64,000 nucleotides of DNA from Candidatus Tritonobacter lacicola (GCA_030765135.1 JAVCDC010000125.1:31607-95606); one strand, 5' to 3'. Counted from the first letter of the stretch, positions 25,183 through 46,652 are shown. Numbers and translations are program-made. Notes: generated by a model from the letters alone, not told the origin.

Positions 25183-25197
25183 ATAGTACTCCTCAAC

Positions 25198-27130: not shown

Positions 27131-27234
27131 TTTTCACGTTCCACGTCCCACGTCCCACGTTCGTTTTTTTTCACGTTACACGTCACACGTCACACGGTTG
27201 TTATTTCACGTTACACGTTTATCATTTCACGTTT
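27131..27234. repeat. tandem heptamer array A (CACGTNN)n, about 11 copies, T-run interspersed
   Basis: Read directly: ttcacgttccacgtcccacgtcccacgttcgttttttttcacgttacacgtcacacgtcacacgg...; it abuts the stop of LtaS-like paralog 1 and lies about 100 nt upstream of the rSAM start at 27031. Confidence 0.9.
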
Positions 27235-29046
27235 TTACTGAATGTATCCCAGGCTCCTGAGCTTCTCCTCTGTCTCGTAGTCCATGACCGTGACGGCCTC
27301 ACCCGCCCTCGGCAACTCCATGATCGAGCGGATCCTCTCCCGGTACTCCTTCACCAGGTCCTCCCGCTCCTTCGATATGTCCCGCAGTTCCAGGGGGTCC
27401 CCGTCCAGGTCGTAGAGCTCCACGGCATCGCCCGGCTTCACGATAAGCTTGTAGCGGTCCGTGCGGTAGGCGACATCGACCGGCCCGTCCCCCATCCGCT
27501 CCGCGACCTGGATCAGGGCGCCCTCCCGCGCGCGTGAGGCATCGCCCTTCATAAGCGGGAGCAGGCTCTCCCCCCCGCACCAGCCGGGGACCTCGAGGCC
27601 GGCCAGCTCCATTATCGTCGGGGCGATGTCGATGGTCTCGACAGGCTGCGGGACGCGCACCGGGCCGACCAGCCCGCGGCTCCGGATGAGCAGCGGCACC
27701 CTTATATGCCCATCGTAGAGCGCCTGGCTGTGACAGAAATAGAGGTCGTGCTCGGTGAGGCTCTCGCCGTGGTCACCTACGACCACGAGTATATAGTCGC
27801 CGGACCTCTCATCAAGCGCCTTCAGGAGCCTCCCCAGCTCCGCATCCATGTAGGTTATCTCCGCGTCGTACTGGGCGATCGGGTATTCGACGTCCGTGAA
27901 ATTGCGCAGCCGGGGCGGCCAGTAGGGGGGCAGCTCGATGCCATCCATCGACCGGTTGTCCGGGTCGTCCTTCCGCCCCTCGTAGTACATGCCCGAGTAG
28001 GGAGCCGGCGGCTCATAGGGGCCGTGTGGATCATTATAGTGCACCCAGAGAAAGAAGGGGACGCGCGCGGACCGCAGCCATGACACGGCATCGTCTGTCG
28101 TCCGGGCGGCAATCCGCTGAAACCTCCCGCCGGCAGTCCGCCCCAGCCAATCGGCAGCACACACGAGCACCAGGCTGTGGAATCCCTTCAGCCGCGAGAA
28201 ATCGTCGTCGTATATTTCGAACCCCCCTGAGAACCCGAACCGCGAATCAATCGGGAAGGCGCTCACGAACGCAGCCGTCCTGTAACCGCGCTTCCCGAAC
28301 TCGTGTACTATCTTCGGGATCTCCGGAGAGTGCCGCTGCTTGTTGCCAAGGACACCGTGCTGGTGCGGGTAAAGCGAGGTAAGGATGGAGAGGTGCGACG
28401 GGTTCGTCACGGGTATCTGGCTGATCGCGTTCTCGAAGAGGACTCCCTCAGACGCTATCCCGTCCAGAGTCGGCGTCAGGATCCGCTCGTTCCCGTAACA
28501 GTGGAGGCGGTCGGCCCTGACGGTGTCGAGCGCCACCAGGACTATGTTCGGCAGCCCCTCCTGCGGCGACGGCCCGCGCGCACCGGGAATCGCCAGCCAG
28601 GCGGTGATCCCCGCGAAGACGGCGATGCCGGCATAGACGCCCCTCCTGCCCCTGAGCTGGCCGCCGAGGGACAGGCCGGCAACAGCCGAGAGGAGGGCGG
28701 AGAGGGCGACCAGGACGGACGCCCACAGCAGAAACGGAGGAGAGAGGAGGACGGCCATACGGGACAGCCTGAAGGTTATGAGGTAAGCGAAGCCGTAGAG
28801 GAGACACCACGCCATGGCTGAGGAGGAGACGGCCACCCTCCATGGCGACGCCCGCCAGAGCCTCCGCCAGAGGGGGTAAAAGAGAACGCACGCGGCCGCA
28901 CCGTACAGCGCGTACATGAAGACTGCAACCAGTATAATCCCCAGCCTCCCCGCGGGAGTGAAATACAGCTCACGGATTGACGCCGCCTCGCCGTAGCCGA
29001 CGAGCCCACCCACCATGGCGCAGAAATATACCGCTCTCTTCATCAT
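27235..29046 (-). CDS. LtaS/EptA-like membrane-anchored sulfatase-fold (alkaline-phosphatase superfamily) transferase, paralog 1
   Basis: About 5 N-terminal TM helices, then a sulfatase-domain core IVLVALDTVRADRLHCYGN...ISQIPVTNPSHLSILTS...HG; the canonical C-x-P-x-R is replaced by T-N-P-S-H, consistent with a Thr nucleophile as in LtaS/EptA/MdoB. Confidence 0.65.
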   Translation of the reverse strand: MMKRAVYFCAMVGGLVGYGEAASIRELYFTPAGRLGIILVAVFMYALYGAAACVLFYPLWRRLWRASPWRVAVSSSAMAWCLLYGFAYLITFRLSRMAVLLSPPFLLWASVLVALSALLSAVAGLSLGGQLRGRRGVYAGIAVFAGITAWLAIPGARGPSPQEGLPNIVLVALDTVRADRLHCYGNERILTPTLDGIASEGVLFENAISQIPVTNPSHLSILTSLYPHQHGVLGNKQRHSPEIPKIVHEFGKRGYRTAAFVSAFPIDSRFGFSGGFEIYDDDFSRLKGFHSLVLVCAADWLGRTAGGRFQRIAARTTDDAVSWLRSARVPFFLWVHYNDPHGPYEPPAPYSGMYYEGRKDDPDNRSMDGIELPPYWPPRLRNFTDVEYPIAQYDAEITYMDAELGRLLKALDERSGDYILVVVGDHGESLTEHDLYFCHSQALYDGHIRVPLLIRSRGLVGPVRVPQPVETIDIAPTIMELAGLEVPGWCGGESLLPLMKGDASRAREGALIQVAERMGDGPVDVAYRTDRYKLIVKPGDAVELYDLDGDPLELRDISKEREDLVKEYRERIRSIMELPRAGEAVTVMDYETEEKLRSLGYIQ

Positions 29047-29110
29047 GTTGTTTTCATGCCCGTTACCCTGATTATAGTCCTGTTTAATCCGAAGTGTATT
29101 TTTCTTTTTC

Positions 29111-29368
29111 TACGTTACACATTACACGTTCCACGTTCATTTTTTTTACGTTACACGTTTATTATTTCACGTTCCACGTTTGTTTTTTACGTTACACGTT
29201 TCACGTTACACGTCACACGTTTGTTTTTTCACGTTTCACGGTTGTTTTTTTACGTTACACGTTTCACGTTACACGTTACACGTTTATTATTTCACGTCAC
29301 ACGGTTGTTTTTTTACGTTACACGTCACACGTTTGTTTTTCCACGTTACACGTTCGTTATTTCACGTC
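29111..29368. repeat. tandem heptamer array B (CACGTNN)n, about 25 copies
   Basis: Read directly; it fills the space between the start of paralog 1 (29046) and the stop of paralog 2 (29370). Confidence 0.9.
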
Positions 29369-29369
29369 T

Positions 29370-31163
29370 TCACTGTATGTAGCCCAGGCTCTTGAGCCTC
29401 TCCTGTGTCTCGCGGTCCATCAGGGGCACCCCGCGGGCGGTCGGGGCCGTCATCACCGATGCGATCCGCTCCTTCAGCTTGAGAACCAGATCCTCCCTCT
29501 CGCCGGAGATGTCGCGCAGCTCCCCCGGGTCCTTTCGAAGGTCGAAGAGGCGCGTCTCCTTTCCCGGGCGGACGATAAGCTTATACCCGCCGTCGTAGCA
29601 GGCGACGTCAAGGATGGACTCGTCTCCCTGCCGCCGCGTCTCGCTCAGCCCCTCGCCCGGCCCGGCGTTCTCGCCTTTCATGAGGGGAACGAGGCTCCTG
29701 CCCGAGCACCAGCCGGGCGCCTCAAGCCCCGCAAGGTCCAGGAGGGTTGGAACGATATCGATGGTCTGGACAACGGCTCCCACGCGCACCGGCTCGCCGG
29801 ACTTCCCGTGGCGAATAATCATGGGGACCTTGACCTGGTCATCGTAGAGATAGTCGCCGTGGCGGAAATAATACCCGCGCTCGTCAAGGCTCTCGCCGTG
29901 GTCACCGACGACAACGAGGATGGTGTCCCCGGAGCGCGAGTCTATCTCCTCCAGGAGCCTCCCGATCTGGGCGTCCGTGTAGGTGACCTCCGCGTCGTAC
30001 TGGGCGATGGGGTAGGCGATATCGGTGAAATCGCGGATCGTGGGCGGCCAGTAAAGAGGCATCTCCACACCGTCCATGCTCCGGTTGGCAGGGTCGTCCT
30101 TCCGCCCCTCGTAGTACATTCCAGAGTAGGGAGGCGGCGGGGCGTACGGGCCGTGAGGGTCGTAATAGTGCACCCACAGGAAATAGGGCTGCCGGGCGAT
30201 CCTGCGGAGCCAGGAGACGGCGTCATCGTTCGTGCGCCCCGCGATCCGCTCGAGGCGCCCGCCGGTTATCCCGAGTATCGAATCGATCACGCGCACGAGC
30301 GTCAGGCTCTGGTATCCCTTGAGGCGGGAGAAGTCGTCGTCGTATATCTCGAAACCGTCCGAGAAGCCGAACCGCGAATCCAGCGTGAAGGAGCTGACGA
30401 ACGCCGCCGTCCTGTAACCGAGCCTGCCAAGCTCGTGGACGATCTTCGGGATATCATCGGAATGCCGGTGCCAGTTCTCAACGACACCGTGCTGGTGGGG
30501 GTAGGTAGAGGAGAGGATCGATAGATGAGACGGGTTCGTTATGGGAATCTGGCTGACAGCGTTCTCGAAGAGGACTCCCTCAGACGCCAGCCGGTCGAGA
30601 ACCGGCGTGCGGACCCTGTCGTTTCCGTAACAGTGCAGTCGGTCCGACCTGATGGTATCGATCGTCACAAGGATTATATTCGGCAGCTCCCCCGGGGGCG
30701 CGGACGGGCGGCCTACGGGAAACACCATCCAGACCGTGAGCGCCGCGAAAATAACAGCGCCCGCATAGAGGCTTCTCTTCCCCTTCAGTACCCGGCCGAA
30801 CGCTCCCCCGGCCAGGAAGGAGATGGCAACGGATGCGACGAGGACGGCCGCCCCCCACATGAGAAACCGGTGCGCCTCACGGTGCATCAATCGGGAGATA
30901 ACCAGGTAGCCGAGGCCGTAAAGGAGGCACCACGCCATGACGGAGGAGGAGACGGCCGCCCTCCATGGCGACGCCCGCCGGAGCCTCCGCCAGAGGGGGT
31001 AAATAACCAGGCACGCGACCGCGCCGTACAGCGCGTACATGAAGACGGCAACCAGTATAATCCCCAGCCTCCCCGCGGGAGTGAAATACAGCTCCCGGAT
31101 TGACGCCGCCTCGCCGTAGCCGACGAGCCCACCCACCATGGCGCAGAAATATACCGCTCTCAT
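29370..31163 (-). CDS. LtaS/EptA-like sulfatase-fold transferase, paralog 2
   Basis: Same architecture. The N-terminal ~90 aa are nearly identical, at nucleotide level as well, to paralog 1. PITNPSH motif. Confidence 0.65.
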   Translation of the reverse strand: MRAVYFCAMVGGLVGYGEAASIRELYFTPAGRLGIILVAVFMYALYGAVACLVIYPLWRRLRRASPWRAAVSSSVMAWCLLYGLGYLVISRLMHREAHRFLMWGAAVLVASVAISFLAGGAFGRVLKGKRSLYAGAVIFAALTVWMVFPVGRPSAPPGELPNIILVTIDTIRSDRLHCYGNDRVRTPVLDRLASEGVLFENAVSQIPITNPSHLSILSSTYPHQHGVVENWHRHSDDIPKIVHELGRLGYRTAAFVSSFTLDSRFGFSDGFEIYDDDFSRLKGYQSLTLVRVIDSILGITGGRLERIAGRTNDDAVSWLRRIARQPYFLWVHYYDPHGPYAPPPPYSGMYYEGRKDDPANRSMDGVEMPLYWPPTIRDFTDIAYPIAQYDAEVTYTDAQIGRLLEEIDSRSGDTILVVVGDHGESLDERGYYFRHGDYLYDDQVKVPMIIRHGKSGEPVRVGAVVQTIDIVPTLLDLAGLEAPGWCSGRSLVPLMKGENAGPGEGLSETRRQGDESILDVACYDGGYKLIVRPGKETRLFDLRKDPGELRDISGEREDLVLKLKERIASVMTAPTARGVPLMDRETQERLKSLGYIQ

Positions 31164-31192
31164 AAATTAGCTCGCTGCGCTCGCAAATTTAT
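31163..31192. promoter_or_regulatory. 30-bp near-palindromic element, copy 4
   Basis: Same sequence as copy 3, flush with the ATG of LtaS-like paralog 2. Confidence 0.6.
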
Positions 31193-31273
31193 TATAAAAA
31201 ATTTTTGAAATTCCGAGGCAGTAAATTAATTCGCTCCGCTCATTCATCTTGCATCCTGAATCCTGTATCTTTT

Positions 31274-31427
31274 CACATTACACGTTCCACGTTCGTTTTT
31301 TTACGTTTCACGTTTCACGTTACACGTCACACGTTTATTTTTTCACGTCACACGTTCCACGTTCGTTTTTTTACGTTTCACGTTTCACGTTACACGTTAC
31401 ACGTTTATTTTTTCACGTCACACGTTT
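31274..31427. repeat. tandem heptamer array C (CACGTNN)n, about 17 copies with an internal ~63-bp duplication
   Basis: Read directly; it lies between the start of paralog 2 (31163) and the stop of the YfhO gene (31428). Confidence 0.9.
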
Positions 31428-33770
31428 TTACTGTATGCAGCCCAGGCTCCTGAAACGGGGAACGGACGCCCAGACAAGGAGGAGCAGAAGTGCGGCCAGG
31501 GATACGCGAGCACCCCACCTGAACGATCCCGGCCTGTAGATGAACTCCACGGTATGGCTCCCCGGAGAAAGCTCCACCGCCCTGAAGACATAGTCCGCGC
31601 GATAAACCGGCGCCTCCTCCCCGTCTATCTCGGCCGTCCAGCCCGGGTACCAGGTGTCCGTGAGGACAAGCCAGCCTCCGCGGGGCGAATCCGCCTCTAT
31701 CGTTACCCGGTCCGGGAGGTACCGGATGACGGCGCACGTGCTGCCTGCCGCGTCGTACTCCACGACCGGCGCGGAGAGCGCTCCATCATCCAGGAGCACC
31801 TCCCGGCGGGGATCGAAGGACGGCCCGGTCATGCGGGCGAGCGTCTCCTCCGCGGCCACGGGAGTAGCCCTTCCAACGATAAACGCGCGGGATAAACACC
31901 TCTCGTTCTCGTAGACCTTCACCCTCCCTCCCTGTATCCGCCTGAAGCCGGGCACGTCAATCTCGTGAACGGTGATAACGAAGCGCACGTTCAGAAGATC
32001 GAGCAGCTTCCGGTTCTTCTCCATGCGGCGCATCGACTCCTCCGGCGGCAGCGGCGCCAGGGAAGTCCCGGTCGCGTCTATGAGCGAGGAGAGCCTCTTC
32101 GGAATAAGTGGCGACGGGTACTCTATATCGGGCACGTTGAAGAGCATCCCGTAGCTTGCCGTCAAGAGTTCCTTCTCAAACGCGACGGGGACGTGCCTGT
32201 CCAGAATGGTTATCCTCCAGAGGCCGTCGGGCGCCGGCAGCGACCCGGCCGTGACGGGTCCCCTGAGAGCAATCTCGGCAGGGGTGACCGGATTATAGCC
32301 CCGCGCAAAAGCCACGAGGTCCGCGAGCGAGATAAAAATGATGAGCACGGCCGCCAGCGTCCCCGGAAGCCTGCGGGACGAAGCGAAGACGACGGCAGCC
32401 AGTGCCAGGAGCCCGATGGGGAGCATGTTCTCCGGGCGTCCCAGCCGCGTGCTTTCCCCCAGCCCGTCGATAAACGCGAGGGCTCTCTCCAGTTTGGGCG
32501 GCTCAAGGCCGGCGCGCAGCTTCCCCTCGATCTCCCCGCTACGGCGATTGAGGACGGCATGGGACAGGGGCAAAACGGCAGCGAAGAAAACGGCCAGGGC
32601 GATCGCTATAACGGCGAGCCTCATCGCCACCCGCCTATTGCGGAGGAGGTTATCGAGTCCGTAGCCGCTCAGGATGGCCAGTGAGAAAGTCAGAACGTAT
32701 CCGAACCTGGCGGGGAAGCGGAAGAGCGAGAACGGCGGAACCGCCATGAGAAGGCGGTATAACGGATTATATTTCCCCAGCATGAGCAGAAAGGAAACGG
32801 CGGCGAGAGCGATAAACACTCCCGCCCTCTTTGGCGGCGCGGCGAAAGCCAGCAAGAGCGGAAGCACACCGACATAGAAACAGAACTCCCAGTAGTTCAC
32901 GCCGACGCCCCAGTAGCCCGAGCCCTCCATGTGGTACGAAACGGGAACGGACGCCGGAGAGTCAAAACCGAAGAAGTGCGGAAAGATAAAATTTATGGCC
33001 TGGAATGGCGGGAACGAGCCCCACCCGAGAAAGCCGCTCTCCGCTCCCTCCCTGACGGAACGGACGGTCAGCTCCGCTGTCGGCAGAAGCTGGGCCGCCG
33101 GGATGGTCAGGGAGAAGAAGACGAGTATCGCAAGTGCGGGGAAAAACCGCCTCGGGCGGACTCCGAAGCGGCACAAGGTATAAAACGCCGCCGCCATGAG
33201 AGAATAAGACGCTATCTGTGGGTGCCCCGCCGTGAACTGGACGCCGACGACCACTCCGGCAAGGGCGATAAAAATCGCCCGCCTCCGTCCCTTCTCGATC
33301 AGCAGAAGGGCAAGCGGCAGCCAGGGATAAGCGCTCATCATGTGCATGAACGTCAGGTGGCTGACGGCGAACCCGCTTATCATGTAGACGGCGGATGACA
33401 GGAAGGACGGGGGGCGCGGCAAGCCGAGCTTCCTGCAGAGAGCGTAGGTGAAGAAGCCGGCCATGAGAAAGTGCCCGATGACGAGGAGGTTGCAGGCAAC
33501 GAGGGGGTGAAAAAGAAAAAACAGGATGATATTCGGCGGGTAGAGGGGGCCTGACTGTCCGTCGGCGAGCATCGGGAAGCCGCATCCCCCGAGTGGGTTC
33601 CATAGAGGTAGCGAGAAGTCCCGGTACAGGATGCCGTTGAACGCCCGCCACGGATAGTGGTGGTGGAATATATCGTGGAAGAAGAGCACCCCGTCCATCA
33701 GAAATAGGCCGGGGAAGATGATGAAGAGAACGAGAACAAGAAGCAGCAGGGGAAGCAGTCTCCCGGTCAT
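31428..33770 (-). CDS. YfhO-family polytopic membrane protein (GT-C-like glycosyltransferase)
   Basis: 780 aa, N-terminal ~13 TM helices, a single C-terminal TM helix, and the C-terminal periplasmic signature TDTWYPGWTAEIDGEEAPVYRADYVFRAVELSPGSHTVEFIYRP characteristic of YfhO proteins. Confidence 0.6.
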   Translation of the reverse strand: MTGRLLPLLLLVLVLFIIFPGLFLMDGVLFFHDIFHHHYPWRAFNGILYRDFSLPLWNPLGGCGFPMLADGQSGPLYPPNIILFFLFHPLVACNLLVIGHFLMAGFFTYALCRKLGLPRPPSFLSSAVYMISGFAVSHLTFMHMMSAYPWLPLALLLIEKGRRRAIFIALAGVVVGVQFTAGHPQIASYSLMAAAFYTLCRFGVRPRRFFPALAILVFFSLTIPAAQLLPTAELTVRSVREGAESGFLGWGSFPPFQAINFIFPHFFGFDSPASVPVSYHMEGSGYWGVGVNYWEFCFYVGVLPLLLAFAAPPKRAGVFIALAAVSFLLMLGKYNPLYRLLMAVPPFSLFRFPARFGYVLTFSLAILSGYGLDNLLRNRRVAMRLAVIAIALAVFFAAVLPLSHAVLNRRSGEIEGKLRAGLEPPKLERALAFIDGLGESTRLGRPENMLPIGLLALAAVVFASSRRLPGTLAAVLIIFISLADLVAFARGYNPVTPAEIALRGPVTAGSLPAPDGLWRITILDRHVPVAFEKELLTASYGMLFNVPDIEYPSPLIPKRLSSLIDATGTSLAPLPPEESMRRMEKNRKLLDLLNVRFVITVHEIDVPGFRRIQGGRVKVYENERCLSRAFIVGRATPVAAEETLARMTGPSFDPRREVLLDDGALSAPVVEYDAAGSTCAVIRYLPDRVTIEADSPRGGWLVLTDTWYPGWTAEIDGEEAPVYRADYVFRAVELSPGSHTVEFIYRPGSFRWGARVSLAALLLLLVWASVPRFRSLGCIQ

Positions 33771-33774
33771 CTGC

Positions 33775-35628
33775 TCACCTGATGTATCCCAAGCTACGGA
33801 GCTTCCCCTCCGTCTCGTAGTCCATAACCGAACTCGCCTCCATGGCCTGTCCCTTCGTAAGCGAGAGAATCCTCTCCCGGTATTTATCGATCAGGTCACC
33901 CCGCTCCTTTGAGATGTTCCTGAGCTCCCGGGGGTCGTTCTGGAGATCGTAGAGTTCGACATCGGCTCCCGGTTTGACGATGAGCTTGTAACGGTCGTCC
34001 CGGTAGGCGAAATCTACCGTCCCGTCTCTCTTTCTTCCGCCCGTTTCGCTCAGGGCTCCCTCTTTCGACGCCGCGTCCCCTCTCATTACCGGGACGAGGC
34101 TCTTTCCCCGGTACCACGCGGGAATGTCAATCCCCGCAAGCTCGAGAATCGTCGGGGCTATGTCGATATTTTCAACGGGGCTCGACAGCCTGACAGGCTC
34201 CACCTTCCCTTTCATCCTGAGAATAAGGGGAACTCGTATGTGCTCGTCATAGAGGGCCGAATCATGGCGGAAATAGAGGTCATGCTCGGTCAGGCTCTCC
34301 CCGTGGTCGCCGACGACGACCAGGAGGTACTCTTCACCGATCCAGGCGTCGAGCTCCTCCACGAGCCTCCCCAACTCTGCGTCCGTGTAGGTGATCTCCG
34401 CATCGTATTGAGCTACGGGATAATTGATGTCCGTGAAATCGACTGCACCGGGCGTCCAGTCGGGGGGCAGCTCGATACCCTCCATGCTGTGGTTGTTCGG
34501 GTCGTCTTTCACTCCCTTATAATACATTCCCGAATACGGGGAAGGAGGAGCGTATGGCCCGTGGGGATCGAAATAGTGAACCCAGAGGAAGAAGGGGGTC
34601 TTCGCCCTGCTGCGCAGCCACGATAGAACCTCGCTATTCGTCTCCCGGGCGTCTCGCTTGGTCATCAGCCGGCGAAAGGCTCTCAGGCCCCACCCCCTTG
34701 TAATGGCGACCCCGGCTATGCGAACCATGGAGAGGCCTTGGAACCCTTTGACTCCCGGGCCGCTGTCGTCGTATATCTCGAATCCCTCGGCAAAGCCGAA
34801 GCGGGATTCCAGAGGAAACGCACTTACGAACGCGGCAGTACGATATCCCCTCCTCGCGAACTCGTCGACAATGGTCGATATGCCCGGAGGACGCCTGCTC
34901 CTGTTATGCATGACTCCCAACTCATGAGGATAGCGGGAGGAGAGAATCGACAGGTGCGACGGATTCGTTACGGGGATCTGGGATATCGCATTTTCGAAGA
35001 GGGCCCCCACCGACGCCAGCCTGTCCATGGTGGGAGTCTCGATCGGCTCATGCCCGTAGCAGCAAATGCGATCGGCCCTGATCGTATCGATTGTCACCAG
35101 AACCACACTCGGTACATCCGCTCCGGGCTGCGCATCCCTTTTACCGGGCACAAAAGCCCAGATACCGAGAGCGAAGACCGCGCACGCCGCAGCTGCGGCC
35201 CATCCTCTCATCTTTAAAACGGTACCGGCGATCCAGCCGAAGAGGCATGCTGTAACGACGGAGGCCGCCATGAGTCCCGCAAAACACAGAAAAAAGCGTG
35301 CTGAGAAGGGGCCGCTCCTCGAGGGAATGCCGAAGAGCAGAATGGCAACGCTGTAGAGCAGAGCGATGGAGAATACGGCCGCCGGGTACACCGCCCGCGC
35401 GTCGTGGCGCGGCATAAGGACACGCCACGCAAAGGAGATGAGCACGGTGGCCGCCATTCCGTATACCGCGTAGCTCGCCGGAGCAGCGAGCAGCAGGCCG
35501 ATCTTTCCCGCGGCGGTGAAATAGAGCCTCGAGTAGACTATGAGAAGCACCGCCTCGGTATAGCCTGCGAGGCCGCCGAAGACCGCCCCGGCGATAATCG
35601 CCCTCCCTATAAATCCCCGTTTGGTCAT
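33775..35628 (-). CDS. LtaS/EptA-like sulfatase-fold transferase, paralog 3
   Basis: MTKRGFIGRAIIAGAVFGG N-terminus; TM domain plus sulfatase core with PVTNPSH. Confidence 0.65.
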   Translation of the reverse strand: MTKRGFIGRAIIAGAVFGGLAGYTEAVLLIVYSRLYFTAAGKIGLLLAAPASYAVYGMAATVLISFAWRVLMPRHDARAVYPAAVFSIALLYSVAILLFGIPSRSGPFSARFFLCFAGLMAASVVTACLFGWIAGTVLKMRGWAAAAACAVFALGIWAFVPGKRDAQPGADVPSVVLVTIDTIRADRICCYGHEPIETPTMDRLASVGALFENAISQIPVTNPSHLSILSSRYPHELGVMHNRSRRPPGISTIVDEFARRGYRTAAFVSAFPLESRFGFAEGFEIYDDSGPGVKGFQGLSMVRIAGVAITRGWGLRAFRRLMTKRDARETNSEVLSWLRSRAKTPFFLWVHYFDPHGPYAPPSPYSGMYYKGVKDDPNNHSMEGIELPPDWTPGAVDFTDINYPVAQYDAEITYTDAELGRLVEELDAWIGEEYLLVVVGDHGESLTEHDLYFRHDSALYDEHIRVPLILRMKGKVEPVRLSSPVENIDIAPTILELAGIDIPAWYRGKSLVPVMRGDAASKEGALSETGGRKRDGTVDFAYRDDRYKLIVKPGADVELYDLQNDPRELRNISKERGDLIDKYRERILSLTKGQAMEASSVMDYETEGKLRSLGYIR

Positions 35629-35688
35629 ATCAAGTCGAAATTATGCAGCGGAACCACCCGAACTATAGATTCCATTACAGGTTACACG

Positions 35689-38581: not shown

Positions 38582-40026
38582 GCCCCTCCTCCTTCCCCGC
38601 CCCGGGGCGGGTGCGCCAGCGCCTCGCCCAGGAGCCGCACGTCTTCGAGCGTGAAAGCCCTTAAGAGACAGGCGGCGGCGAGGAAGGCCGCTACGGCGAC
38701 AGCGCCCCATCCCAAGCCGTCTCCGGCGTAAAGGAGGAGCAAGCCCGCCGGGACCGCGGCAAGAAGGGGCCTGATAAGCTGCACGCAGTCGACCGCCACC
38801 ACCTTAGCCCGCGCGAAGACAAGCGAGACGACGCAGAGGAGGGCGTACGAGGCGAGCATCGACCAGCTCGCCCCGATGTACCCCCACCGCGGCACGGTGA
38901 TGATATCCAGACACAGGTTCAGGGAGAAACACAGTATCAGGCTCGCCAGGACGTACCCCTGGCGGTCCGCCGAGATCAGGAGATAATGGGTAAGCTGGAC
39001 GAGAAAGAGGAACGGGATCGCGCAGCCCAGGATCCTGAGGGCGGCGCCGCTTGCCTCGAACTCGCTCCCACCTATCGCGAGGACAATGGGAGGGGCGTAC
39101 TTGACTATGAGGATAAAGAAAAGGAGGCCGAGGCTGAAGAGGAGCTTGAAGGACTTATCGAACGCCACCTTCAGGGCATCGATCGAGCTGAGCGCCAGCC
39201 GGGAGAAGACCGGGAAGATAGCCACGACGGTGGCTGAGGAGACTATTACCAGCTGGAGGACGACCGTGTGCGGCAGGCTGAAAAGGCTCACATCCTCGGC
39301 CTTCCCGATGCTCTTGATCATGAAGACGGGCATGTTGAACGAAGCCATCAGGAAAAAGGCCGAAAGGCCGAGGGGATATGACTCGCCCAGCAGCTTTGCC
39401 CATATGTTCTTCGCCAGTTTCAATCGTACCCGGGTAAATTTCCTGTGGATAATGATCAGGCCGACAACCATCCTGATCAGCTGGGAGACCGAGAGAGAGG
39501 CGAAGATGGCCACGAAACCCAGGTCGAATTTCGCGACTATTATCAGCAGCAGGATGGAAATGCCCCGCAGAACGACGGCCAGCAGCGTCTCGTACTCCAT
39601 CTTCTCGAAACCCTTGTACACGGATATGAAGAGCATGGCCGTCGAGGCGAAGAGCTGCGACGCGGTCGCTATGGCGAGCGCCAGGATAAACATGAGAGGC
39701 ATGCCGAGGGCGAGTACCACACACATCTCTACCAGGAAGGCCACGCCGACGATGATCAACCTGAGGGAAAGCGCCGCGTCCATCAGCTCCTCGGCCCGGT
39801 CCCTGTTGCGGGCCACCTCCCTGGTGATTATGCCCTCGACGCCGAAATCGGCTATGAGCTTCAGCATCTCTGCTATCGCCACGAGGAAGAAGTAATTGCT
39901 GCCTCCTTTCGCGCCCAGATACCTGCTCACGATGGAAAGGAGGAGAACGCCGAACCCGATATTTATGATGTTCGAGACGAATACCGCGACGGTGTTCTTG
40001 GCGAGTGTTCTTAAAGGGTTGGACAT
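38578..40026 (-). CDS. MOP-superfamily polysaccharide flippase (Wzx/PST-like)
   Basis: 14 predicted TM helices; start MSNPLRTLAKNTVAVF at 40026, a typical Wzx N-terminus. Confidence 0.6.
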   Translation of the reverse strand: MSNPLRTLAKNTVAVFVSNIINIGFGVLLLSIVSRYLGAKGGSNYFFLVAIAEMLKLIADFGVEGIITREVARNRDRAEELMDAALSLRLIIVGVAFLVEMCVVLALGMPLMFILALAIATASQLFASTAMLFISVYKGFEKMEYETLLAVVLRGISILLLIIVAKFDLGFVAIFASLSVSQLIRMVVGLIIIHRKFTRVRLKLAKNIWAKLLGESYPLGLSAFFLMASFNMPVFMIKSIGKAEDVSLFSLPHTVVLQLVIVSSATVVAIFPVFSRLALSSIDALKVAFDKSFKLLFSLGLLFFILIVKYAPPIVLAIGGSEFEASGAALRILGCAIPFLFLVQLTHYLLISADRQGYVLASLILCFSLNLCLDIITVPRWGYIGASWSMLASYALLCVVSLVFARAKVVAVDCVQLIRPLLAAVPAGLLLLYAGDGLGWGAVAVAAFLAAACLLRAFTLEDVRLLGEALAHPPRGGEGGGA

Positions 40027-40126
40027 TGCTGATCCCGCATACGTAAATCTTCCTGGCAGGGACGGCACAGCACCGCATCCCGCGTTCTATCCGCGTGCCC
40101 GCGGCGAAGGGCGGGCCGGCGGGCGA

Positions 40127-40489
40127 TCACGCCTTTTTCATCTCGCGCAACTTCCTGTAGAGATCGTTGGTCAGGAGCGCCTGCCTCTGTGTCATGCGGT
40201 TAATCTGGCGGGTCAGGGCGGATATCCTGATGGAGAAATGGAGGCATATCAGGATAATAAAGAAGAGGCCGAAAAAAAGCAGCGTCGATGTAAAGAGGAC
40301 GGCGCCGATCATGCTCGTCATGTAGTCGAGAAGCTCCTGCCATATGGAGAGGATGAAAATCGATACCCCCGCCACCAGCCATCCCACCGAGTACTCCTCG
40401 TTAAGGTGCCTCCTCCTCACGAGATCGAAGACATAGATAACAAGCAGAAAACTGAACGCAACCGCGATAATCCTTATTTTCGGGGGCAT
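40127..40489 (-). CDS. small 3-TM membrane protein, DUF2304-like partner of GT2 polyprenol-phosphate glycosyltransferases
   Basis: 120 aa, VFDLVRRRHLNEEYSVGWL motif; overlaps the upstream GT2 gene end by 16 nt. Confidence 0.4.
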   Translation of the reverse strand: MPPKIRIIAVAFSFLLVIYVFDLVRRRHLNEEYSVGWLVAGVSIFILSIWQELLDYMTSMIGAVLFTSTLLFFGLFFIILICLHFSIRISALTRQINRMTQRQALLTNDLYRKLREMKKA

Positions 40490-41205
40490 AATCGACCTCC
40501 TGCCGGTTTCTGCCTCAACAGCGTCACCGCTATGGACAGGAACATTTTGAAAATGTAGTAAATATTTTTATGCCCTCTGTGCATCGACTTGCCCTTCTCG
40601 GGCATGTACATCTTGACAGGGACCTCCCTGATCCGGAATTTCGCGAAGTGCAGCAGAATAAGAACGTCCGCGTCAGGGTAATCCACGGGAAAGACGTCCG
40701 TGCAGAAAAGCTCCACGACGGGCCGCCTCATGGCCTGGAAGCCGCTCGTGGGGTCCGTCACCTTCTGGCGGATGACCAGCGAGGCCGTCAACCCGAAGAG
40801 ACCCATGCCGATCCTCCGCGAAAAAGACGGCTTGTAGCCGGTCTCTCCCAGAAAGCGGGAGCCGACGACAACGTCGGCATCGCCCGAGAATATCGGCCGG
40901 AGAAGCGTTTTGAGCGAGGATGGGTCGTGCTGGCCGTCGCCGTCCATCTGGACGACGATATCGTACCCGTTCAGCCTGGCGTAGAGGTACCCCGTCTGGA
41001 GGGCGGCGCCGTAGCCTATGTTGTGGTAGAGAGAGACGACATCAGCCCCCTCCCTGAGAGCTATCTCCGCGGTGTCATCGCTCGACCCGTCGTTTATCAC
41101 GACGATATCGGCATCCGGGAGCTCCGACTTTACGCCCTCGATCACGGAGGCTATCGTCTTCGCCACGTTGAAAGACGGTATGATTACGAGAATCCTGTCA
41201 TTCAT
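40474..41205 (-). CDS. GT2 polyprenol-phosphate glycosyltransferase (DPM1/ArnC/GtrB-like)
   Basis: VIIPSFNVAKTI...VVINDGSSDDT...QMDGDGQHDP, the diagnostic motifs of Und-P/Dol-P sugar synthases; 243 aa with a C-terminal amphipathic tail. Confidence 0.7.
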   Translation of the reverse strand: MNDRILVIIPSFNVAKTIASVIEGVKSELPDADIVVINDGSSDDTAEIALREGADVVSLYHNIGYGAALQTGYLYARLNGYDIVVQMDGDGQHDPSSLKTLLRPIFSGDADVVVGSRFLGETGYKPSFSRRIGMGLFGLTASLVIRQKVTDPTSGFQAMRRPVVELFCTDVFPVDYPDADVLILLHFAKFRIREVPVKMYMPEKGKSMHRGHKNIYYIFKMFLSIAVTLLRQKPAGGRLCPRK

Positions 41206-41330
41206 TTTCTATACCCGGTATGGGTTTCGAATACATCCTCAGCGGGTCATTAGATTACCATTTACACGACCGGTATGCATGGAATTTCGCAGGCCGGAAA
41301 AAGGCAGGAAACAGGACAATAAACCGCCAC

Positions 41331-42764
41331 CTATCCCCCGGTCCAGCAGCGGAGGATGCCCGAGCACGTCCCCGAATAAGCGTCCCGGCCCGCTATATGC
41401 TCGACCACATCCGCGTAAACTCTGCGCCGCGAATCAGTATCCAGAGAAGTGTTGTGCCAGAGAAGGACAAATACGCCCCCGTGATCGCTGACGGTGGAGA
41501 GAAGGGCTTCGACCTCCGACAGCGCCTCACCATCCCTCCCCTCGTTCCTGCCGGCCGTGAGGGCGGCGTCCGTCGCCGTAACCGGAATTTCCCAGAGGGG
41601 CAGCTCGCGGCCGCGGCGGAGATCGAACACCCTGTATGGAAAACAGACCCCGCAGCGGAAACCATTGCTCCCGCGAAAGGAAAGCGTGGAATCGTAGAGC
41701 AAACCGGCATCCGCCATGGCACTCCATGTCACCGGGTTCTTCCACAAAAGGCGCTGCTGCCTCGCGCCGGGGGCCGCCCTGCCGATGAGACGGGAGAGCC
41801 TGCGCCTCTCCTCCGCCATCCTCCGGGGATCATCATGGCCGTAAACGCCGCCGTGGAGCCCTATCTCGTGGCCGCGGCTCGCTATGTACTTCACGAGCTG
41901 GCTCGGGCCGGCGTCCAGTATCGAGTAGACCTCCTCCGGGCCGGTATCGTAGTCCGTGCGTATGAAGAAACTCGACCTCATTCCGAGGCGCTCCTCCAGG
42001 TTCATGATGAAGTCGAACGTCCAGTAGGGATCCCGCCTAGTCCCCCTGGCGACGGCAAGAGCGTCGAGGGCCAGGCGCGCGGAGGCGGCAAACCTCCCCC
42101 TGAGCATATCCCCGGCCATTTCCCGTATGACCCGGCGAGGGGTGTACTTCCGGATACGGTCAACGTTATGGGTGAGACAGACGGCGAACTTCCTCCCCCT
42201 CCAACCCGGCCGATCCCCGAGGTTGACGTCCAGCTCGCCGACCCATGAACGGAAAAGGTCGAGGTACCGGTTCACGATGGGATAGGAAAGGAACCCCTCC
42301 CTGAAAGCGAGGCTCGATGATACGGGGAAGCAGCCATACTCATCCCTCTCCCCGGGGATATACTCCTCGTACCTGGTTATCATAAAAAATGTGGCCGCCG
42401 GGATGTCGATATTGGTACTGAGCATCGAGCGGTCCCGCACGAAGAACGGCTCGACGCTCTCCCCGCCCGTGTATATGACCGGAAGACCGTCGTATTCCGG
42501 GAGAGGCGTAGCGGGCAGGGACCCCGCCTCCTTGTAGGCCTCGTAGAGGAGAGGAGAACGGTAGATGTGAATATGCTTTTTAGCCTGGATAGCCGGGACG
42601 GAGCTTCCGTATGAGACGAGGAGGTCTTCCGGGGGGATCGCGGAAATGTCGGATAAAGGAAAGAGATGATAATCGAGCCCCGAAAGCTCCATCATGGCTT
42701 TCAGCGCGTAACATACCTCCGCGGAATGCGGGCCTTTCTCGTATGCTAAAGCTATCCTGGACAT
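41331..42764 (-). CDS. polysaccharide deacetylase-like (CE4/NodB-related) protein
   Basis: CLTHNVDR and HEIGLHGG motifs, with an N-terminal extra domain. Confidence 0.45.
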   Translation of the reverse strand: MSRIALAYEKGPHSAEVCYALKAMMELSGLDYHLFPLSDISAIPPEDLLVSYGSSVPAIQAKKHIHIYRSPLLYEAYKEAGSLPATPLPEYDGLPVIYTGGESVEPFFVRDRSMLSTNIDIPAATFFMITRYEEYIPGERDEYGCFPVSSSLAFREGFLSYPIVNRYLDLFRSWVGELDVNLGDRPGWRGRKFAVCLTHNVDRIRKYTPRRVIREMAGDMLRGRFAASARLALDALAVARGTRRDPYWTFDFIMNLEERLGMRSSFFIRTDYDTGPEEVYSILDAGPSQLVKYIASRGHEIGLHGGVYGHDDPRRMAEERRRLSRLIGRAAPGARQQRLLWKNPVTWSAMADAGLLYDSTLSFRGSNGFRCGVCFPYRVFDLRRGRELPLWEIPVTATDAALTAGRNEGRDGEALSEVEALLSTVSDHGGVFVLLWHNTSLDTDSRRRVYADVVEHIAGRDAYSGTCSGILRCWTGG

Positions 42765-42836
42765 ATTTACACAGCGTATTACGGTTTTACAATAGTCATT
42801 GCGAGCGCAGGAAAATACTTTCGCTGCGGAGAATGC

Positions 42837-43106
42837 TCACGGGCGGCGACGCCGATCTTCCTTGAAGCGGCGGGCAGCTGGGGAGATCTCTCTTCGCAGA
42901 CGGATCATTTCCCGGAGGATATCGAGGATCACGCCGGGTTTCGGGAGGTTCAACAACCTCCCCTTGCCGATCTCGAAACAGGTAGCCCCCGCAACCCTCG
43001 GTAAATGCGTAACGCCGACCTCGATAATATGCTGAATGTTCCCCTCCTCGTTGTAGGCGGGAAAAAACGCGCTGATCGACCTAACCCTGAACTGTTGATG
43101 TGTCAT
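42837..43106 (-). pseudogene. possible N-terminal remnant of a GT2 glycosyltransferase
   Basis: The 89-aa ORF begins ...SISAFFPAYNEEGNIQHIIEVGV, matching a GT2 N-terminus, then lacks the DDGS.D region and degenerates; it is isolated inside a 400-bp intergenic region. Confidence 0.25.
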
Positions 43107-43170
43107 ACGGGGCCTTAAAATATTACGTCAAGAACCTGCCGGCCGGGTTCTGTAATTCACCTCTTACCAT

Positions 43171-44124
43171 CTAATACCGACCGAACAGCTTATTCATGTA
43201 GCCGACAGCCGCGCCGGCCACGCCGGCTATCCCCTTCAAGACGCCGGCAAACGGGTAGACTACGGCCGTCAAGGCTCCATACCGGGCGCACACGCGAAAA
43301 GCGTCCGGCACGTGGAGGAGGAGGAGGAGCACGAGCATCACGGGAGGCAGCAGTGGCAGCCAGGGGATCGCGACGAGCGAAGCCAGAAGGAGAGCCGCGC
43401 CGGCGACCTGCGCCCTGATCCATATATCGCTTCTGAATATATCCCCCCTGAGATGCGGACGGTACCGGGCGTACAGGTAATTCCGCGTCAGGTAACCCCT
43501 CAGGGTGCTCTTGTAGTGGTGCCACGCTATCGCTTCCGCAACATACACAAGCCTGTAGCCGGCGGAGATTATCTTCTGGTTCAGGTCCGCGTCGAGGCAG
43601 GAGTTGTACAGGGCCTCTTCGAACACCCCGAAGCGCCTGAACACCTCCGGCCGGTAGACGGCGTTGGCCGAGGTGATATGCATCGCGTATTTCGGCTGAG
43701 AATCAAACTTCTTATCAACGTCGTACCCGGCGACCCGCGCTATCAGGTTCGAGCTGGCGGGGGTCAGAAGGTGCCCCCCGGCGCCCATGACGCTCTCGTC
43801 TCCGAACTCCGGCAGGATGAGCGAAAGCCAGTCCGGCGAAACCTGCACGTCGGATTCCACGAGCGCTATATAGTCGCCGGCGGCCATGGCGAGCGCCGCG
43901 TTCAGGGCGGCCGACTCACCCCTGTTGGGCTGACGGACAAGGTCGATAATCTCCGGGAACCTCTCCCCGTACGATAACGCCACGTCATAGGTGCCATCGG
44001 TGGAGCCGTCGTCCACGACAATGATGCGGCGCTCGAAACCACCCTCAAGGTCAAGGACAGACTGTATGGCCGCGCCTATGGTACCGGCGGCGTTATATGC
44101 GGGCATTAAAAAGCTGATCTTCAT
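43171..44124 (-). CDS. GT2 family glycosyltransferase with C-terminal membrane anchor
   Basis: Start MKISFLMPAYNAAGTI at 44124 (ATGA overlap with the upstream rSAM stop); IVVDDGSTDGT and ESDVQVSPDW motifs; C-terminal TM helices. Confidence 0.6.
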   Translation of the reverse strand: MKISFLMPAYNAAGTIGAAIQSVLDLEGGFERRIIVVDDGSTDGTYDVALSYGERFPEIIDLVRQPNRGESAALNAALAMAAGDYIALVESDVQVSPDWLSLILPEFGDESVMGAGGHLLTPASSNLIARVAGYDVDKKFDSQPKYAMHITSANAVYRPEVFRRFGVFEEALYNSCLDADLNQKIISAGYRLVYVAEAIAWHHYKSTLRGYLTRNYLYARYRPHLRGDIFRSDIWIRAQVAGAALLLASLVAIPWLPLLPPVMLVLLLLLHVPDAFRVCARYGALTAVVYPFAGVLKGIAGVAGAAVGYMNKLFGRY

Positions 44125-45548
44125 CTCTTTTGAAAAAATAGCTCGAACGCAATCCGGAGGTCCTCCTTCAACGCCCTCCAAGACGCGCAGCGCCTGAGCC
44201 TCTTAAGGATAAACCGCGGGCGGAGGTAGAACTTACGGTAGGCCTTCCTCTGGAGCCTCTCCAGGTCGCTCGCCGTGAGCTGCGGGTAGCTTATGACGCT
44301 CTTGCCCAGCGGGTTGATGTAATCCGAGTCATCGATGAGATACCCCTCCGACTTGCAGAAGCGGTAGAACTCCGTTCCCTTGAACGGCGTTGCCACCGAG
44401 AACATCGCGTTGTCGATTCCCAGATTCCCGGCCACCCTGACCGTGTAGGCGATGTCCTCCTCCGTCTCCTCGGGACACGTCCCGAACATCAGGTTGAGCT
44501 TCGGGTCTATCCCGTGCCTCTTGAGGGTGGACACGGCCTCACGCGCCGTCTCGGCCTTCAGGTCCTTCCTTATGTAGTCAAGGACCTTCTGCTTGAAGCT
44601 CTCCACGCCTATATCGATGGAGACACAGCCCGACTTTGCCAGCGCGCCTATCACCTCCTCGTCCGTCAGGAAGTCGGCCCGCGAGAGGCACCCCCACTCA
44701 AGCGACAGGCCCTCTATCCTGCCGCATATCTCGAGCGTCCGCTCCCTGCCCCAGAGGAACTGGTCGTCCAGGACCATGACCGATTTGTAGCCGCCCGCGG
44801 CGATCGCCTCGAACTCGGCCGCGACCCTTCCCGCGGAGGCCACGGCGGGGGGGGGCTTCCTGCCGAAGTGCTTGATATGCTCCAGCTCCCTGGCAAAGCT
44901 TATGGAATTGGGGACGCAGAAGAGGCACCTGAAGGCGCAGCCGCGGGACGCCATCATGGCCGTATACGGGCGCCCGCGGAATTTCGGATTGAAGTACGAG
45001 AGGGCATACCTCCTGATGGAGGCGTGAAAGCGGTCTGGGACAGGCAGCATGTCCATATCCACCAGTTCCGACGGCTTGCCGTGGACCACCCGGCCATCGC
45101 GGAGCATGGAGACGCCGGGGGGCGTCTCCCCGTCAACGCACTGGAGTATCTTGTTCTCGATCTCCCCCCGGAAGACGACCACGCGCTGATCGATAAGGTA
45201 CTGCTCGGGAACACGGGTCGGCTCGGGGCCGTGGAGGATGAATCTCACATCGCCCTTCCTCTCGAGGATCATGCCCATGAAGTGGAGGTCGGTACGCTTG
45301 GAGAGGATGACGGAGTGGATTATATATATGTCGGAGTCGTCTCCCCCGACGCGCTTGATAAAAGCCGCGCCGTCCAGCTTCTCCAGGCCCGAGTCGATGT
45401 AGCCGACATCGTGTCCCGCCTCGGTCAGCATCGTGAGGGGGTAGAGGTTCGCCAGGTCCGGGAAATGGTAAAGCTCGTAGGTGCAGCCGGCGAGACGCTC
45501 CGGCACCTTATCCTCTATCGACGGTGGTTCGAGAAACGTTATTTTCAT
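44121..45548 (-). CDS. B12-binding domain radical SAM enzyme
   Basis: MKITFLEPPS...B12-binding region; SRGCAFRCLFCVPN CxxxCxxC. Confidence 0.75.
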   Translation of the reverse strand: MKITFLEPPSIEDKVPERLAGCTYELYHFPDLANLYPLTMLTEAGHDVGYIDSGLEKLDGAAFIKRVGGDDSDIYIIHSVILSKRTDLHFMGMILERKGDVRFILHGPEPTRVPEQYLIDQRVVVFRGEIENKILQCVDGETPPGVSMLRDGRVVHGKPSELVDMDMLPVPDRFHASIRRYALSYFNPKFRGRPYTAMMASRGCAFRCLFCVPNSISFARELEHIKHFGRKPPPAVASAGRVAAEFEAIAAGGYKSVMVLDDQFLWGRERTLEICGRIEGLSLEWGCLSRADFLTDEEVIGALAKSGCVSIDIGVESFKQKVLDYIRKDLKAETAREAVSTLKRHGIDPKLNLMFGTCPEETEEDIAYTVRVAGNLGIDNAMFSVATPFKGTEFYRFCKSEGYLIDDSDYINPLGKSVISYPQLTASDLERLQRKAYRKFYLRPRFILKRLRRCASWRALKEDLRIAFELFFQKR

Positions 45549-45702
45549 AACACAGAGCGTTCGCGCGCGTGCGACATGTAATGCGCGAAGTATAATGTAA
45601 GGCTGTATTGTTTCATAGTGCGCTCTAGCCGCAGCTTGACATCTTCAATGAAGCGCGTATATCACATTCGTATTTTACCATTCACCACTCACCACCCACT
45701 AT

Positions 45703-46440
45703 TCACTCTTTTTCCGCCACGAAGACCATATTCGTCCCGAGGCCGAGCCGGTTAAAGAGGTTATCAAACTTCGCCAGGCAGTAAACGCCATTTGTCAGCA
45801 GCCGGCTGAGAGTCGAGCCGGCCCATATCTCGCTCTGCCTGTGGTCGCGGCGGCGCCGCAGGCGCGTATACAGCCAGACTAGGGACCGCACACAGGGCCA
45901 TCCGACCGTGAAGTAGTCCCGGACGCGAAACCCGTCCAGGAGGGCCGCCGCCTCCTCCCGCGTGAACCTCCGGAGGTGGCCGCCGATCTCGTCGAGGAAG
46001 GTGTACTGGCGCGGGTCTTTCGGGACCGTGAGTATGAGCCTGCCGCCGCTCTTCAAGAGGCCGTGTATATGCCCGACCACCCGAGCTGGCTCACGAACGT
46101 GCTCGAGGACCTCGCAGCAGACCGCCAGATCGCAGGATCCGGGCGCGAGCCCCACTATAGGGCCCTCGAAATCCGCAACGCGGAAATCGGCCCGGACGCC
46201 CATCTCCGCCGCGATGCGCCGGGCCATGTCGATCACCTTCTTCTCGCTGTCGACACCGGTCACGTCGAAGCCCGCGCGGGCCAGGGAAATCGCCACCCTC
46301 CCCGACCCGCAGCCCACGTCCACGACTTTTCCGGGGCCCCGCCCCGCTATCCGGAGCAGGATGCCGGTGAGGTTCCTCATGGCCGGGTCCCCCCACTGCC
46401 ACTTCCTTATTAGATCCTCACTTTCTCTGTATATTCGCAT
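45703..46440 (-). CDS. class I SAM-dependent methyltransferase
   Basis: VVDVGCGSGRVAISLARAGFDVTGVD (motif I) and LKSGGRLILTV (post-I/II). Confidence 0.7.
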   Translation of the reverse strand: MRIYRESEDLIRKWQWGDPAMRNLTGILLRIAGRGPGKVVDVGCGSGRVAISLARAGFDVTGVDSEKKVIDMARRIAAEMGVRADFRVADFEGPIVGLAPGSCDLAVCCEVLEHVREPARVVGHIHGLLKSGGRLILTVPKDPRQYTFLDEIGGHLRRFTREEAAALLDGFRVRDYFTVGWPCVRSLVWLYTRLRRRRDHRQSEIWAGSTLSRLLTNGVYCLAKFDNLFNRLGLGTNMVFVAEKE

Positions 46441-46550
46441 ACGTCAATCCGCGGCACGCACAAAGTGACAAAGCCAGCCTTTATAATTTAATGAGTTTTA
46501 TGAGTTATACGTAGGGCAATAACCATCTAATAAATTATTCAACTCATTTA

Positions 46551-46652
46551 ACGTTACACGTCACACGTTCCACGTTACACGTTTATTTCTTCACGTCACA
46601 CGTTCCACGTTACACGTTTATTTCTTCACGTCACACGTTACACGTTACACGA
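46551..46652. repeat. tandem heptamer array D (CACGTNN)n, about 12 copies with an internal 36-bp duplication
   Basis: Read directly; it lies between the methyltransferase start (46440) and the rSAM/SPASM stop (46645). Confidence 0.9.

Follow-up and report, generated by a model that had tools for sequence, protein, structure and literature searches.

Among the long simple sequence repeats (SSRs) of most prokaryotic genomes, those with a heptanucleotide unit are the most abundant, and their proposed cause is slippage of the polymerase, as the survey of Mrazek et al. (2007) is cited in later work (PMC4679880; PMC4692102). Intergenic heptamer repeats are known from cyanobacteria, Beggiatoaceae and Bacteroidetes (PMC4679880). 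Here we analyse four tandem arrays of a CACGTNN heptamer in a 64,000-nt stretch of DNA from Candidatus (Ca.) Tritonobacter lacicola (GCA_030765135.1 JAVCDC010000125.1:31607-95606), referred to below as the window. A protein that bears this species name is 100% identical to the radical SAM/SPASM protein of the window. The organism, whose description (PMC9324843) is based on the anoxic zone of the Antarctic Ace Lake, is a member of Ca. Auribacterota in the Planctomycetes-Verrucomicrobia-Chlamydiae (PVC) group. That description of the metagenome-assembled genome (MAG) does not mention tandem repeats, and we found no earlier report of heptamer arrays in Ca. Auribacterota in the papers retrieved on the organism. 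The arrays belong to the known class of heptanucleotide long SSRs (LSSRs) and short tandemly repeated repetitive (STRR) sequences; what is new is the phylum, the compound unit and the position against stop codons. They are probably slippage-generated microsatellites in the unconstrained, stop-proximal part of the gene spacers, with no dedicated switch function.

The LSSR 5-11 class, as the work of Mrazek, Guo and Shah (2007) is presented in PMC4679880 and PMC4692102, shares with our arrays 7-nt tandem units beyond chance expectation, a mostly intergenic location and many units per genome. It also occurs in free-living bacteria with larger genomes, has a sporadic phylogenetic distribution and is thought to originate by slippage. 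The arrays described here differ in being compound (CACGTNN together with in-register T-rich heptamers), in being organized in 21-, 35- and 70-nt blocks, and in always abutting or straddling stop codons. The TAACTGA repeats of marine Beggiatoaceae, cyanobacteria and some Bacteroidetes (PMC4679880) and the cyanobacterial STRR heptamers are likewise intergenic direct heptamers without strong predicted RNA structure, and their units also contain stop triplets, so that overlap with coding ends is only brief. For the TAACTGA repeats, S1, Csp or CsrA-type proteins have been put forward as possible binders (MacGregor, 2015, PMC4679880). Sets of TAACTGA, however, comprise 2-6 copies a few nucleotides upstream of start codons, whereas here 15-37 units, reading NNACGTG, abut the upstream stop codon. 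The tracts of hmw1A and hmw2A in Haemophilus influenzae (Dawid et al., 1999, in the account given by PMC2651432) are 7-bp repeats located ∼ 100 bp upstream of surface-structure genes; each paralog has its own tract, and copy number varies between genomes. According to the same account these tracts consist of 13-38 perfect copies, belong to a host-adapted pathogen and have a demonstrated effect on expression; our arrays, in contrast, have at most two identical units side by side and come from a free-living lake anaerobe.

Anatomy of the arrays

Coordinates refer to the window, in which the arrays span 27131-46652. An earlier model-based reading of this sequence (the original prediction) had placed four CACGTNN arrays here, and our analysis bears this out. 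The window contains 34 matches to CACGTNNCACGT, compared with 0.05 expected from dinucleotide-preserving shuffles; all are on the plus strand and none lies outside the four arrays. Tandem Repeats Finder (TRF) also recovers the arrays, with period 7 and multiples of it. They are as follows, without strand assignment.

27131-27234, array A: 104 nt, 14.9 units, 10 exact CACGT, GC 0.43
29111-29368, array B: 258 nt, 36.9 units, 20 CACGT, GC 0.37
31274-31427, array C: 154 nt, 22 units, 15 CACGT, GC 0.39
46551-46652, array D: 102 nt, 14.6 units, 11 CACGT, GC 0.44

As had been predicted, the arrays are AT-rich intergenic sequences between co-directional envelope genes; their GC contents lie 15-22 percentage points below that of the window (0.587). 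The unit is CACGTNN on the plus strand and, the flanking genes all being on the minus strand, NNACGTG with A-runs in the sense of the genes. The T-runs are themselves in-register heptamers (GTTTTTT, ATTATTT, ATTTCTT). The 7-nt register is strict, with slips of 1-2 nt confined to A and B, and an 18-mer, ACGTTACACGTCACACGT, is common to all four arrays.

A higher-order organization is superimposed on the heptamers. Array B consists mostly of 21-nt blocks made of two CACGTNN units and one T-rich heptamer (TRF period 21, 11.2 copies), each with a T6-8 tract. Array C is a 70-nt block repeated 2.3 times (95% identity) with T-tracts spaced 28 or 42 nt apart, and D is a 35-nt block repeated 2.7 times (98%) with T-tracts every 35 nt. 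Recent internal duplications in C and D had been noted in the original prediction and are present, but their sizes are these and not 36-63 bp. Long exact matches (48 nt) are limited to D, at period 35, and to C, at period 70. At the level of the single heptamer the arrays are degenerate: no more than two adjacent heptamers are identical in any array, and an exact match at period 7 extends over 13 nt at most. The description of the arrays as a classic 7-bp substrate for slipped-strand mispairing is thus not borne out.

Nearly all genes in the window are on the minus strand, and each array meets a stop codon at its high-coordinate end. The original prediction had each array beginning directly after a stop codon; the arrays do adjoin one, but by this end, and D runs over it. 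Array A (stop at 27235) lies between sulfatase paralog 1 and the start of a B12-radical SAM gene at 27031, with a gap of 100 nt. Array B (stop at 29370) separates sulfatase paralog 2 from the start of paralog 1 at 29046, and array C (stop at 31428) separates a YfhO-like gene from the start of sulfatase paralog 2 at 31163. Array D overlaps the last 8 nt of a radical SAM/SPASM gene, whose stop codon (46645-46647) is inside the first unit of D, and is 110 nt from the start of a methyltransferase gene (46440). Apart from this 8-nt overlap all four arrays are intergenic, and the distance to the next start codon is 65-110 nt in each case.

Duplication and probable birth and decay of the arrays

At the end of the fourth sulfatase paralog the sequence reads CAG TGA CGTGTAACCTGTAATGG, with a short run of related units after the stop codon.

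35660-35688, minus strand: proto-array of 2-3 units (TGACGTG TAACCTG TAATGGA), directly past the stop codon of the fourth sulfatase paralog

Arrays A and C have common flanks (27023-27170 versus 31155-31302, 91% identity) and are alike on the stop-proximal side too. The last eight codons of the YfhO-like gene (FRSLGCIQ*, 31428-31455, minus strand) share homology with the codons in which the sulfatase genes end (LRSLGYIQ*). Together, the similar flanks and the sulfatase-derived end of the YfhO-like gene indicate that a tandem duplication copied the array along with the end of the gene and the leader downstream of it. The original end of the YfhO-like gene was therefore replaced when the adjacent sulfatase-plus-array segment was duplicated, and its sulfatase-derived codons mark the boundary of the duplicated segment that carries array C.

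Related species for arrays A-C were found by a search with the B12-radical SAM protein (96, 81 and 79% amino acid identity); a contig scan for orthologous loci yielded only relatives of 26-34% identity. In a close relative (L143, 96%) the equivalent of array A is 2 units in a 43-nt spacer. In L147 (79%) ∼ 6 units fill the 53-nt spacer between two sulfatase genes, leaving 15 nt before the next ATG, and another ∼ 6 units precede the conserved leader. After one of its sulfatase genes L145 (81%) carries ∼ 9 units, many of which have become ATGTG; after another it carries none. At the position of array D, where the window has ∼ 14.5 units, relatives of 74-75% identity have 2.5, 0 and 0 units. The relative with 2.5 units (L151) reads ATC GTG TAA CGTGTAA CGTTGAA and so keeps just the seed of D, from which it follows that this seed is the SPASM gene's own last codons.

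Comparison of array lengths in related genomes, put forward as a check in the original prediction, does reveal shifts of copy number over evolution, from 0 to ∼ 37 units at equivalent spacers. Across the paralogs and four to six related contigs the counts are 0, 2, 6, 9, 15, 22 or 37. This series has the pattern of microsatellite birth, expansion and decay and gives no indication of a conserved functional module of defined size.

We propose that arrays would be seeded where the 3' end of a gene happens to undergo a short duplication, of the kind seen in CAG TGA CGTG TAAC for the sulfatases and ATC GTG TAA CGTGTAA for the SPASM gene. Growth would proceed by replication slippage at first and later by unequal exchange of 21-, 35- and 70-nt blocks. 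Arrays A, B and C would have been copied with the last 8 sulfatase codons during tandem gene duplication. The arrays would fill the variable, stop-adjacent part of the spacer, while the start-proximal 65-110 nt would stay non-repetitive and conserved. If this is correct, the locus offers a clean natural case of microsatellite birth, growth, co-duplication and decay in which the seed is still visible in the last codons.

Period 7 in the window and in other phyla

In a periodicity scan of the window, nine of 11 periodic segments had period 7, in six different units; shuffled sequences gave none. Five of the arrays have units other than CACGTNN.

10346-10428: heptamer array TCGTCCT/TCAATCG, straddling the stop codon of a Wzy_C gene
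47997-48095: heptamer array CTTTCAA
48152-48207: heptamer array TTCTGTC
51513-51560: heptamer array GTCAATC
62865-62914: heptamer array ATTGAAC

These five adjoin unrelated genes and lack T-tracts. Three of them straddle stop codons, those of the Wzy_C, a B12-radical SAM and a GGDEF response regulator gene. Period 7 is thus a habit of the genome and not a property of the ACGT unit.

The stop-crossing arrays (10390-10428, 48185-48207 and 51528-51560) encode the last 4-12 residues of the Wzy_C, B12-radical SAM and GGDEF proteins; examples of such repeat-encoded C-termini are ...RKDGGRRTIDD* and ...CEKEDCEKDD*.

The same habit is found in other phyla. A scan for four consecutive CACGTNN units, with one genome per species, gave at least 120 loci in many phyla, where by our estimate ∼ 1 match would be expected in random sequence of equal size (20 specified bases). 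Among the matches listed, Chloroflexota are the commonest, followed by Acidobacteriota, Bacteroidota, Gemmatimonadota and Desulfococcaceae; those listed also include Verrucomicrobia, Planctomycetes, Proteobacteria, Actinobacteria and others, some in complete genomes. In 866 kb of these loci, chosen for their 123 CACGT-type arrays, we found 60 further period-7 arrays with other units, compared with 14 arrays for the other periods from 4 to 12 combined. The CACGT arrays at the at least 120 loci have no universal orientation relative to genes (28 '--' versus 24 '++', from crude calling of open reading frames (ORFs)). Among the loci listed, none matched the window at the DNA level. On the reading proposed above, the locus would add the candidate phylum Ca. 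Auribacterota to the lineages dominated by 7-nt repeats; why 7 nt is favoured across bacteria, a question open since 2007, is neither answered nor made more testable by this locus alone.

Some arrays in other phyla are longer and purer than those described here, reaching 287 nt of CACGTAT/CACGTTT in Desulfococcaceae bacterium HSG8 (L048:5414-5701; L081 and L070 are further examples). The HSG8 genome has arrays on at least four contigs.

Leader sequences and transcription

Between array A and the ATG lies a non-repetitive leader.

27032-27130, minus strand: leader of ∼ 100 nt, ending in the motif TTGCGAGCGCAGCGAGCTAATTT

The leader is duplicated at 31164-31265 (91% identity). In a relative whose B12-radical SAM protein is just 79% identical it is ∼ 97% identical and so far better kept than coding DNA. 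Scanning the array spacers with a sigma-70-like consensus, which may not be that of the phylum, gave no promoter on the gene strand, and no intrinsic terminator was found on that strand of the spacers. Matches from the promoter and terminator scan inside the arrays are on the plus strand, antisense to the genes. The region 27000-31500 has no match in Rfam at E ≤ 1.

Read in the sense of the genes, the repeats give a purine- and A-rich RNA of weak structure. In L147 the array fills the 53-nt spacer to within 15 nt of the ATG and must therefore lie on a polycistronic RNA. More generally, spacers of 43 and 53 nt in the relatives leave no room for a promoter, so that the repeats would be transcribed there as intercistronic RNA. 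The near-absent or spacer-filling arrays of the relatives point to read-through transcription rather than to a promoter module. The arrays of the window are most likely transcribed too, as intercistronic spacers of a long operon of co-directional envelope-polysaccharide genes. If they influence expression, this would be a by-product of spacer length and of A-rich, weakly structured RNA and not the output of a dedicated switch.

Two other kinds of element were considered and rejected. The ACGU cores can pair as ladders of 4-bp helices, but the folding energies are like or slightly better than those of shuffled sequences (z -0.07 to -2.6), and we do not regard the arrays as a structured RNA. Clustered regularly interspaced short palindromic repeats (CRISPR), iterons and mobile elements were dismissed because unique spacers and terminal inverted repeats are lacking and the flanks are alike only at the duplicated genes.

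The motif TTGCGAGCGYAGCGAGCTAATTT occurs five times in the window (0 expected), at 25201-25223, 27032-27054, 31164-31186 and 57975-57997 on the minus strand and at 13856-13878 on the plus strand. The minus-strand copies are always just 5' of a gene start, and at 27031 and 31163 the ATG follows the motif directly, without a Shine-Dalgarno sequence. The sequence TAAATTTG, which precedes TTGCGAGCGYAGCGAGCTAATTT, resembles a TAnnTTTG -7 box of the Bacteroidetes type.

Variation among assemblies

The B12-radical SAM protein is encoded on 18 contigs from several assemblies of the Joint Genome Institute (JGI) and the European Nucleotide Archive (ENA). Six loci covering A and B, the latter in those assemblies that extend to it, show 100% identity with the window along as much as 7.5 kb, and the samples from which A and B are recovered alike number at least five, the pipelines at least two. 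Arrays C and D each have two alleles. The spacer of C measures 264 or 194 nt, a difference of exactly one 70-nt block, and that of D measures 204 or 169 nt, a difference of exactly one 35-nt block. The short alleles are all from ENA k141 assemblies and the long ones, which include the form in the window, all from JGI. Since the alleles of C and D are split perfectly by pipeline, the short form could be a collapse artefact; polymorphism and collapse are not separable from the assemblies. The population-level variation proposed in the original prediction is therefore not evident: A and B are invariant in six assemblies, and the alleles of C and D are confounded with the assembler.

Short-read contigs end at or near arrays or inside sulfatase paralogs (L143:1-144, L132:1-146 and the ends of L124 and L125). 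Because contigs end at arrays, spacer lengths in MAGs of this lineage depend on the assembler and are reliable only where reads back them. The arrays also give rise to spurious ORFs and cause short-read assemblies to break or collapse.

Alternative explanations

The original prediction offered two functions for the arrays, phase-variation switches and multimerised transcription-factor sites, which would decide which of the LtaS-like or radical SAM paralogs is expressed. A tuning or phase-variable SSR of the hmw1A/hmw2A type at envelope-gene promoters would act by gain or loss of a unit or block, shifting the spacing or the context of upstream elements and giving heterogeneous output of sulfatase, radical SAM protein and methyltransferase, for instance in escape from phage. 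The 65-110 nt between array and start codon are similar to the ∼ 100 bp reported for the functional Haemophilus tracts in the account of PMC2651432, the flanking genes have lipopolysaccharide (LPS) and polysaccharide functions, a Logan contig breaks at D, and copy number differs strongly between related species. The two alleles each of C and D, one exact 70- or 35-nt block apart, would fit as well, but they follow the pipeline (ENA k141 versus JGI) and may be collapse artefacts, while A and B do not differ across six assemblies from several samples. The 13-38 perfect copies of hmw-type tracts contrast with at most two identical neighbours here. Moreover, we found no promoter-like site on the gene strand of the spacers, the relatives' spacers of 43 and 53 nt are too small for a promoter, and arrays with other units flank unrelated genes in the window, including that of the GGDEF response regulator. 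We consider such a switch unlikely; were it real, it would extend contingency-locus behaviour to a free-living anaerobe.

That the arrays serve as a protein-binding platform is a less probable proposal still. It could take the form of a dimeric regulator on the palindromic ACGT core or of a single-strand binder with a footprint of 6-7 nt (cold-shock domain or S1-like) coating the intercistronic RNA, as MacGregor proposed for the TAACTGA repeats, a post-transcriptional role for heptamer repeats thus having been proposed before (PMC4679880). Positions 6-7 vary far more than the core CACGT, which three related species retain, ACGTTACACGTCACACGT recurs in all four arrays, and the sense RNA is purine-rich with little structure. 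On a duplex, however, neighbouring 7-bp sites face different sides of the helix. Direct-repeat sites for transcription factors (SARP heptamers, OmpR/PhoB boxes) are spaced by about one helical turn, 10-11 bp, whereas the units here are contiguous at 7 bp. An ACGT-specific factor is not needed, given that many unrelated units form arrays here and elsewhere; the notion of multimerised ACGT-core sites is accordingly not supported, with five unrelated heptamers in the same window and many others in genomes of other phyla. Nor is there a sign of a preferred number of sites, with 0 to 37 at equivalent positions and just 2 in a close relative, and no candidate for the binding protein came to light. 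A bolder version, which we regard as a long shot, has heptamer arrays in general function in single-stranded form, either in intercistronic RNA or in the DNA strand that is displaced, where a cold-shock-domain or S1-like protein covering 7 nt would recognize them. How much neighbouring envelope genes produce relative to one another would in that case depend on array length, the preference of so many phyla for period 7 would stem from this protein and not from a slippage bias, and gain or loss of 35- and 70-nt blocks would diversify the cell surface of the lake population.

A role in DNA shape, with phased T-tracts giving intrinsic curvature or an AT-rich insulator that binds nucleoid proteins, is suggested by the 21-nt blocks of B, which equal two helical turns and each carry a T6-8 tract, and by the low GC content of all four arrays. 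It fails to account for C and D, where tract spacings of 28/42 and 35 nt are out of helical phase, for the heptamer arrays of the window that have no T-tracts, or for relatives in which most of the array is missing, and we give it very little credence. Assembly artefact is a very improbable explanation of the arrays themselves. Contigs of some assemblies do end at or near them and the lengths of C and D vary with the assembler, but A and B are identical from at least two pipelines and at least five samples, homologous arrays exist in three other species from a different sample, and analogous arrays are present in complete genomes.

We therefore favour slippage-generated microsatellites without a dedicated function. 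The data directly show the anatomy of the arrays, the prevalence of period 7 in this genome and in many phyla, the seeds, the co-duplication and the differences in copy number between species, from which slippage, read-through transcription and the lack of a dedicated function are inferred. The following observations weigh against our choice. Variation of the unit falls mostly at positions 6-7 and the core CACGT is seldom changed. Even where proteins are just 79-81% identical between species, the ACGTG core still occupies this position, a persistence that selection could explain no less well than concerted evolution by slippage. The arrays adjoin envelope-modifying genes, typical cargo of contingency loci, they lie at a distance from the start codon at which heptamer tracts are functional in Haemophilus, and C and D each exist in two forms among assemblies. 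Finally, the lack of a dedicated function is not demonstrated.

The envelope gene cluster and other features of the window

The window is a large envelope-polysaccharide and LPS cluster. It encodes Wzy_C, Polysacc_synt, GT2, a lipid A acyltransferase, a Kdo-family kinase, many B12-radical SAM proteins and four sulfatases. Genes in and around the arrays are listed below.

25505-27031, minus strand: B12-binding radical SAM gene, downstream of array A
27235-29046, minus strand: sulfatase-family paralog 1, 603 aa, PF00884, N-terminal membrane segment, ends LRSLGYIQ*
29370-31163, minus strand: sulfatase-family paralog 2, 597 aa
31428-33770, minus strand: YfhO-like membrane protein, 780 aa, ends FRSLGCIQ*
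33775-35628: third sulfatase paralog, no units after the stop codon
35689-37563: fourth sulfatase paralog, 2-3 proto-units after the stop codon
45703-46440, minus strand: SAM-dependent methyltransferase gene, downstream of array D
46645-47577, minus strand: radical SAM/SPASM gene, terminal codons ATC GTG TAA forming the first unit of D

The original prediction had named two LtaS-like paralogs. There are four, all of the PF00884 sulfatase family; their best NCBIfam matches are arylsulfatase and choline sulfatase, all under the curated cut-offs, and EptA matches at just E = 1e-7, a more distant resemblance.

A c-di-GMP-I riboswitch at 17410-17498 on the minus strand (RF01051, 57.8 bits, E = 1e-8) is the sole match in the window to reach the Rfam gathering threshold. 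It lies upstream of an ORF of 1126 aa (13923-17303, minus strand) that has no Pfam match and contains internal tandem repeats of ∼ 198 and 399 nt (13953-14803). The intergenic leaders at 25183-25504 and 57975-58130, both on the minus strand, have in common a long, structured-looking element, GTATAGGAATTTGTTAT..CAAAGGTAGCC ... CACAATGCTCCGACGCAGTCGGAGCC..ATAAATTTGCGAGCGTAGCGAGCTAATTT, the last 58 nt of which are 98% identical. Neither leader has an Rfam match at E ≤ 1, so the element may be an undescribed cis-regulatory RNA.

The 607-nt intergenic region at 47578-48184 contains ACGGATT direct repeats facing inverted AATCCGT copies, in addition to the CTTTCAA and TTCTGTC heptamers. Relatives, too, have ACGGATT/AATCCGT and GTTGAAA repeats upstream of their SPASM gene (L149:100-330 and 720-790; L151:855-1710), together with a small membrane-protein-like ORF.

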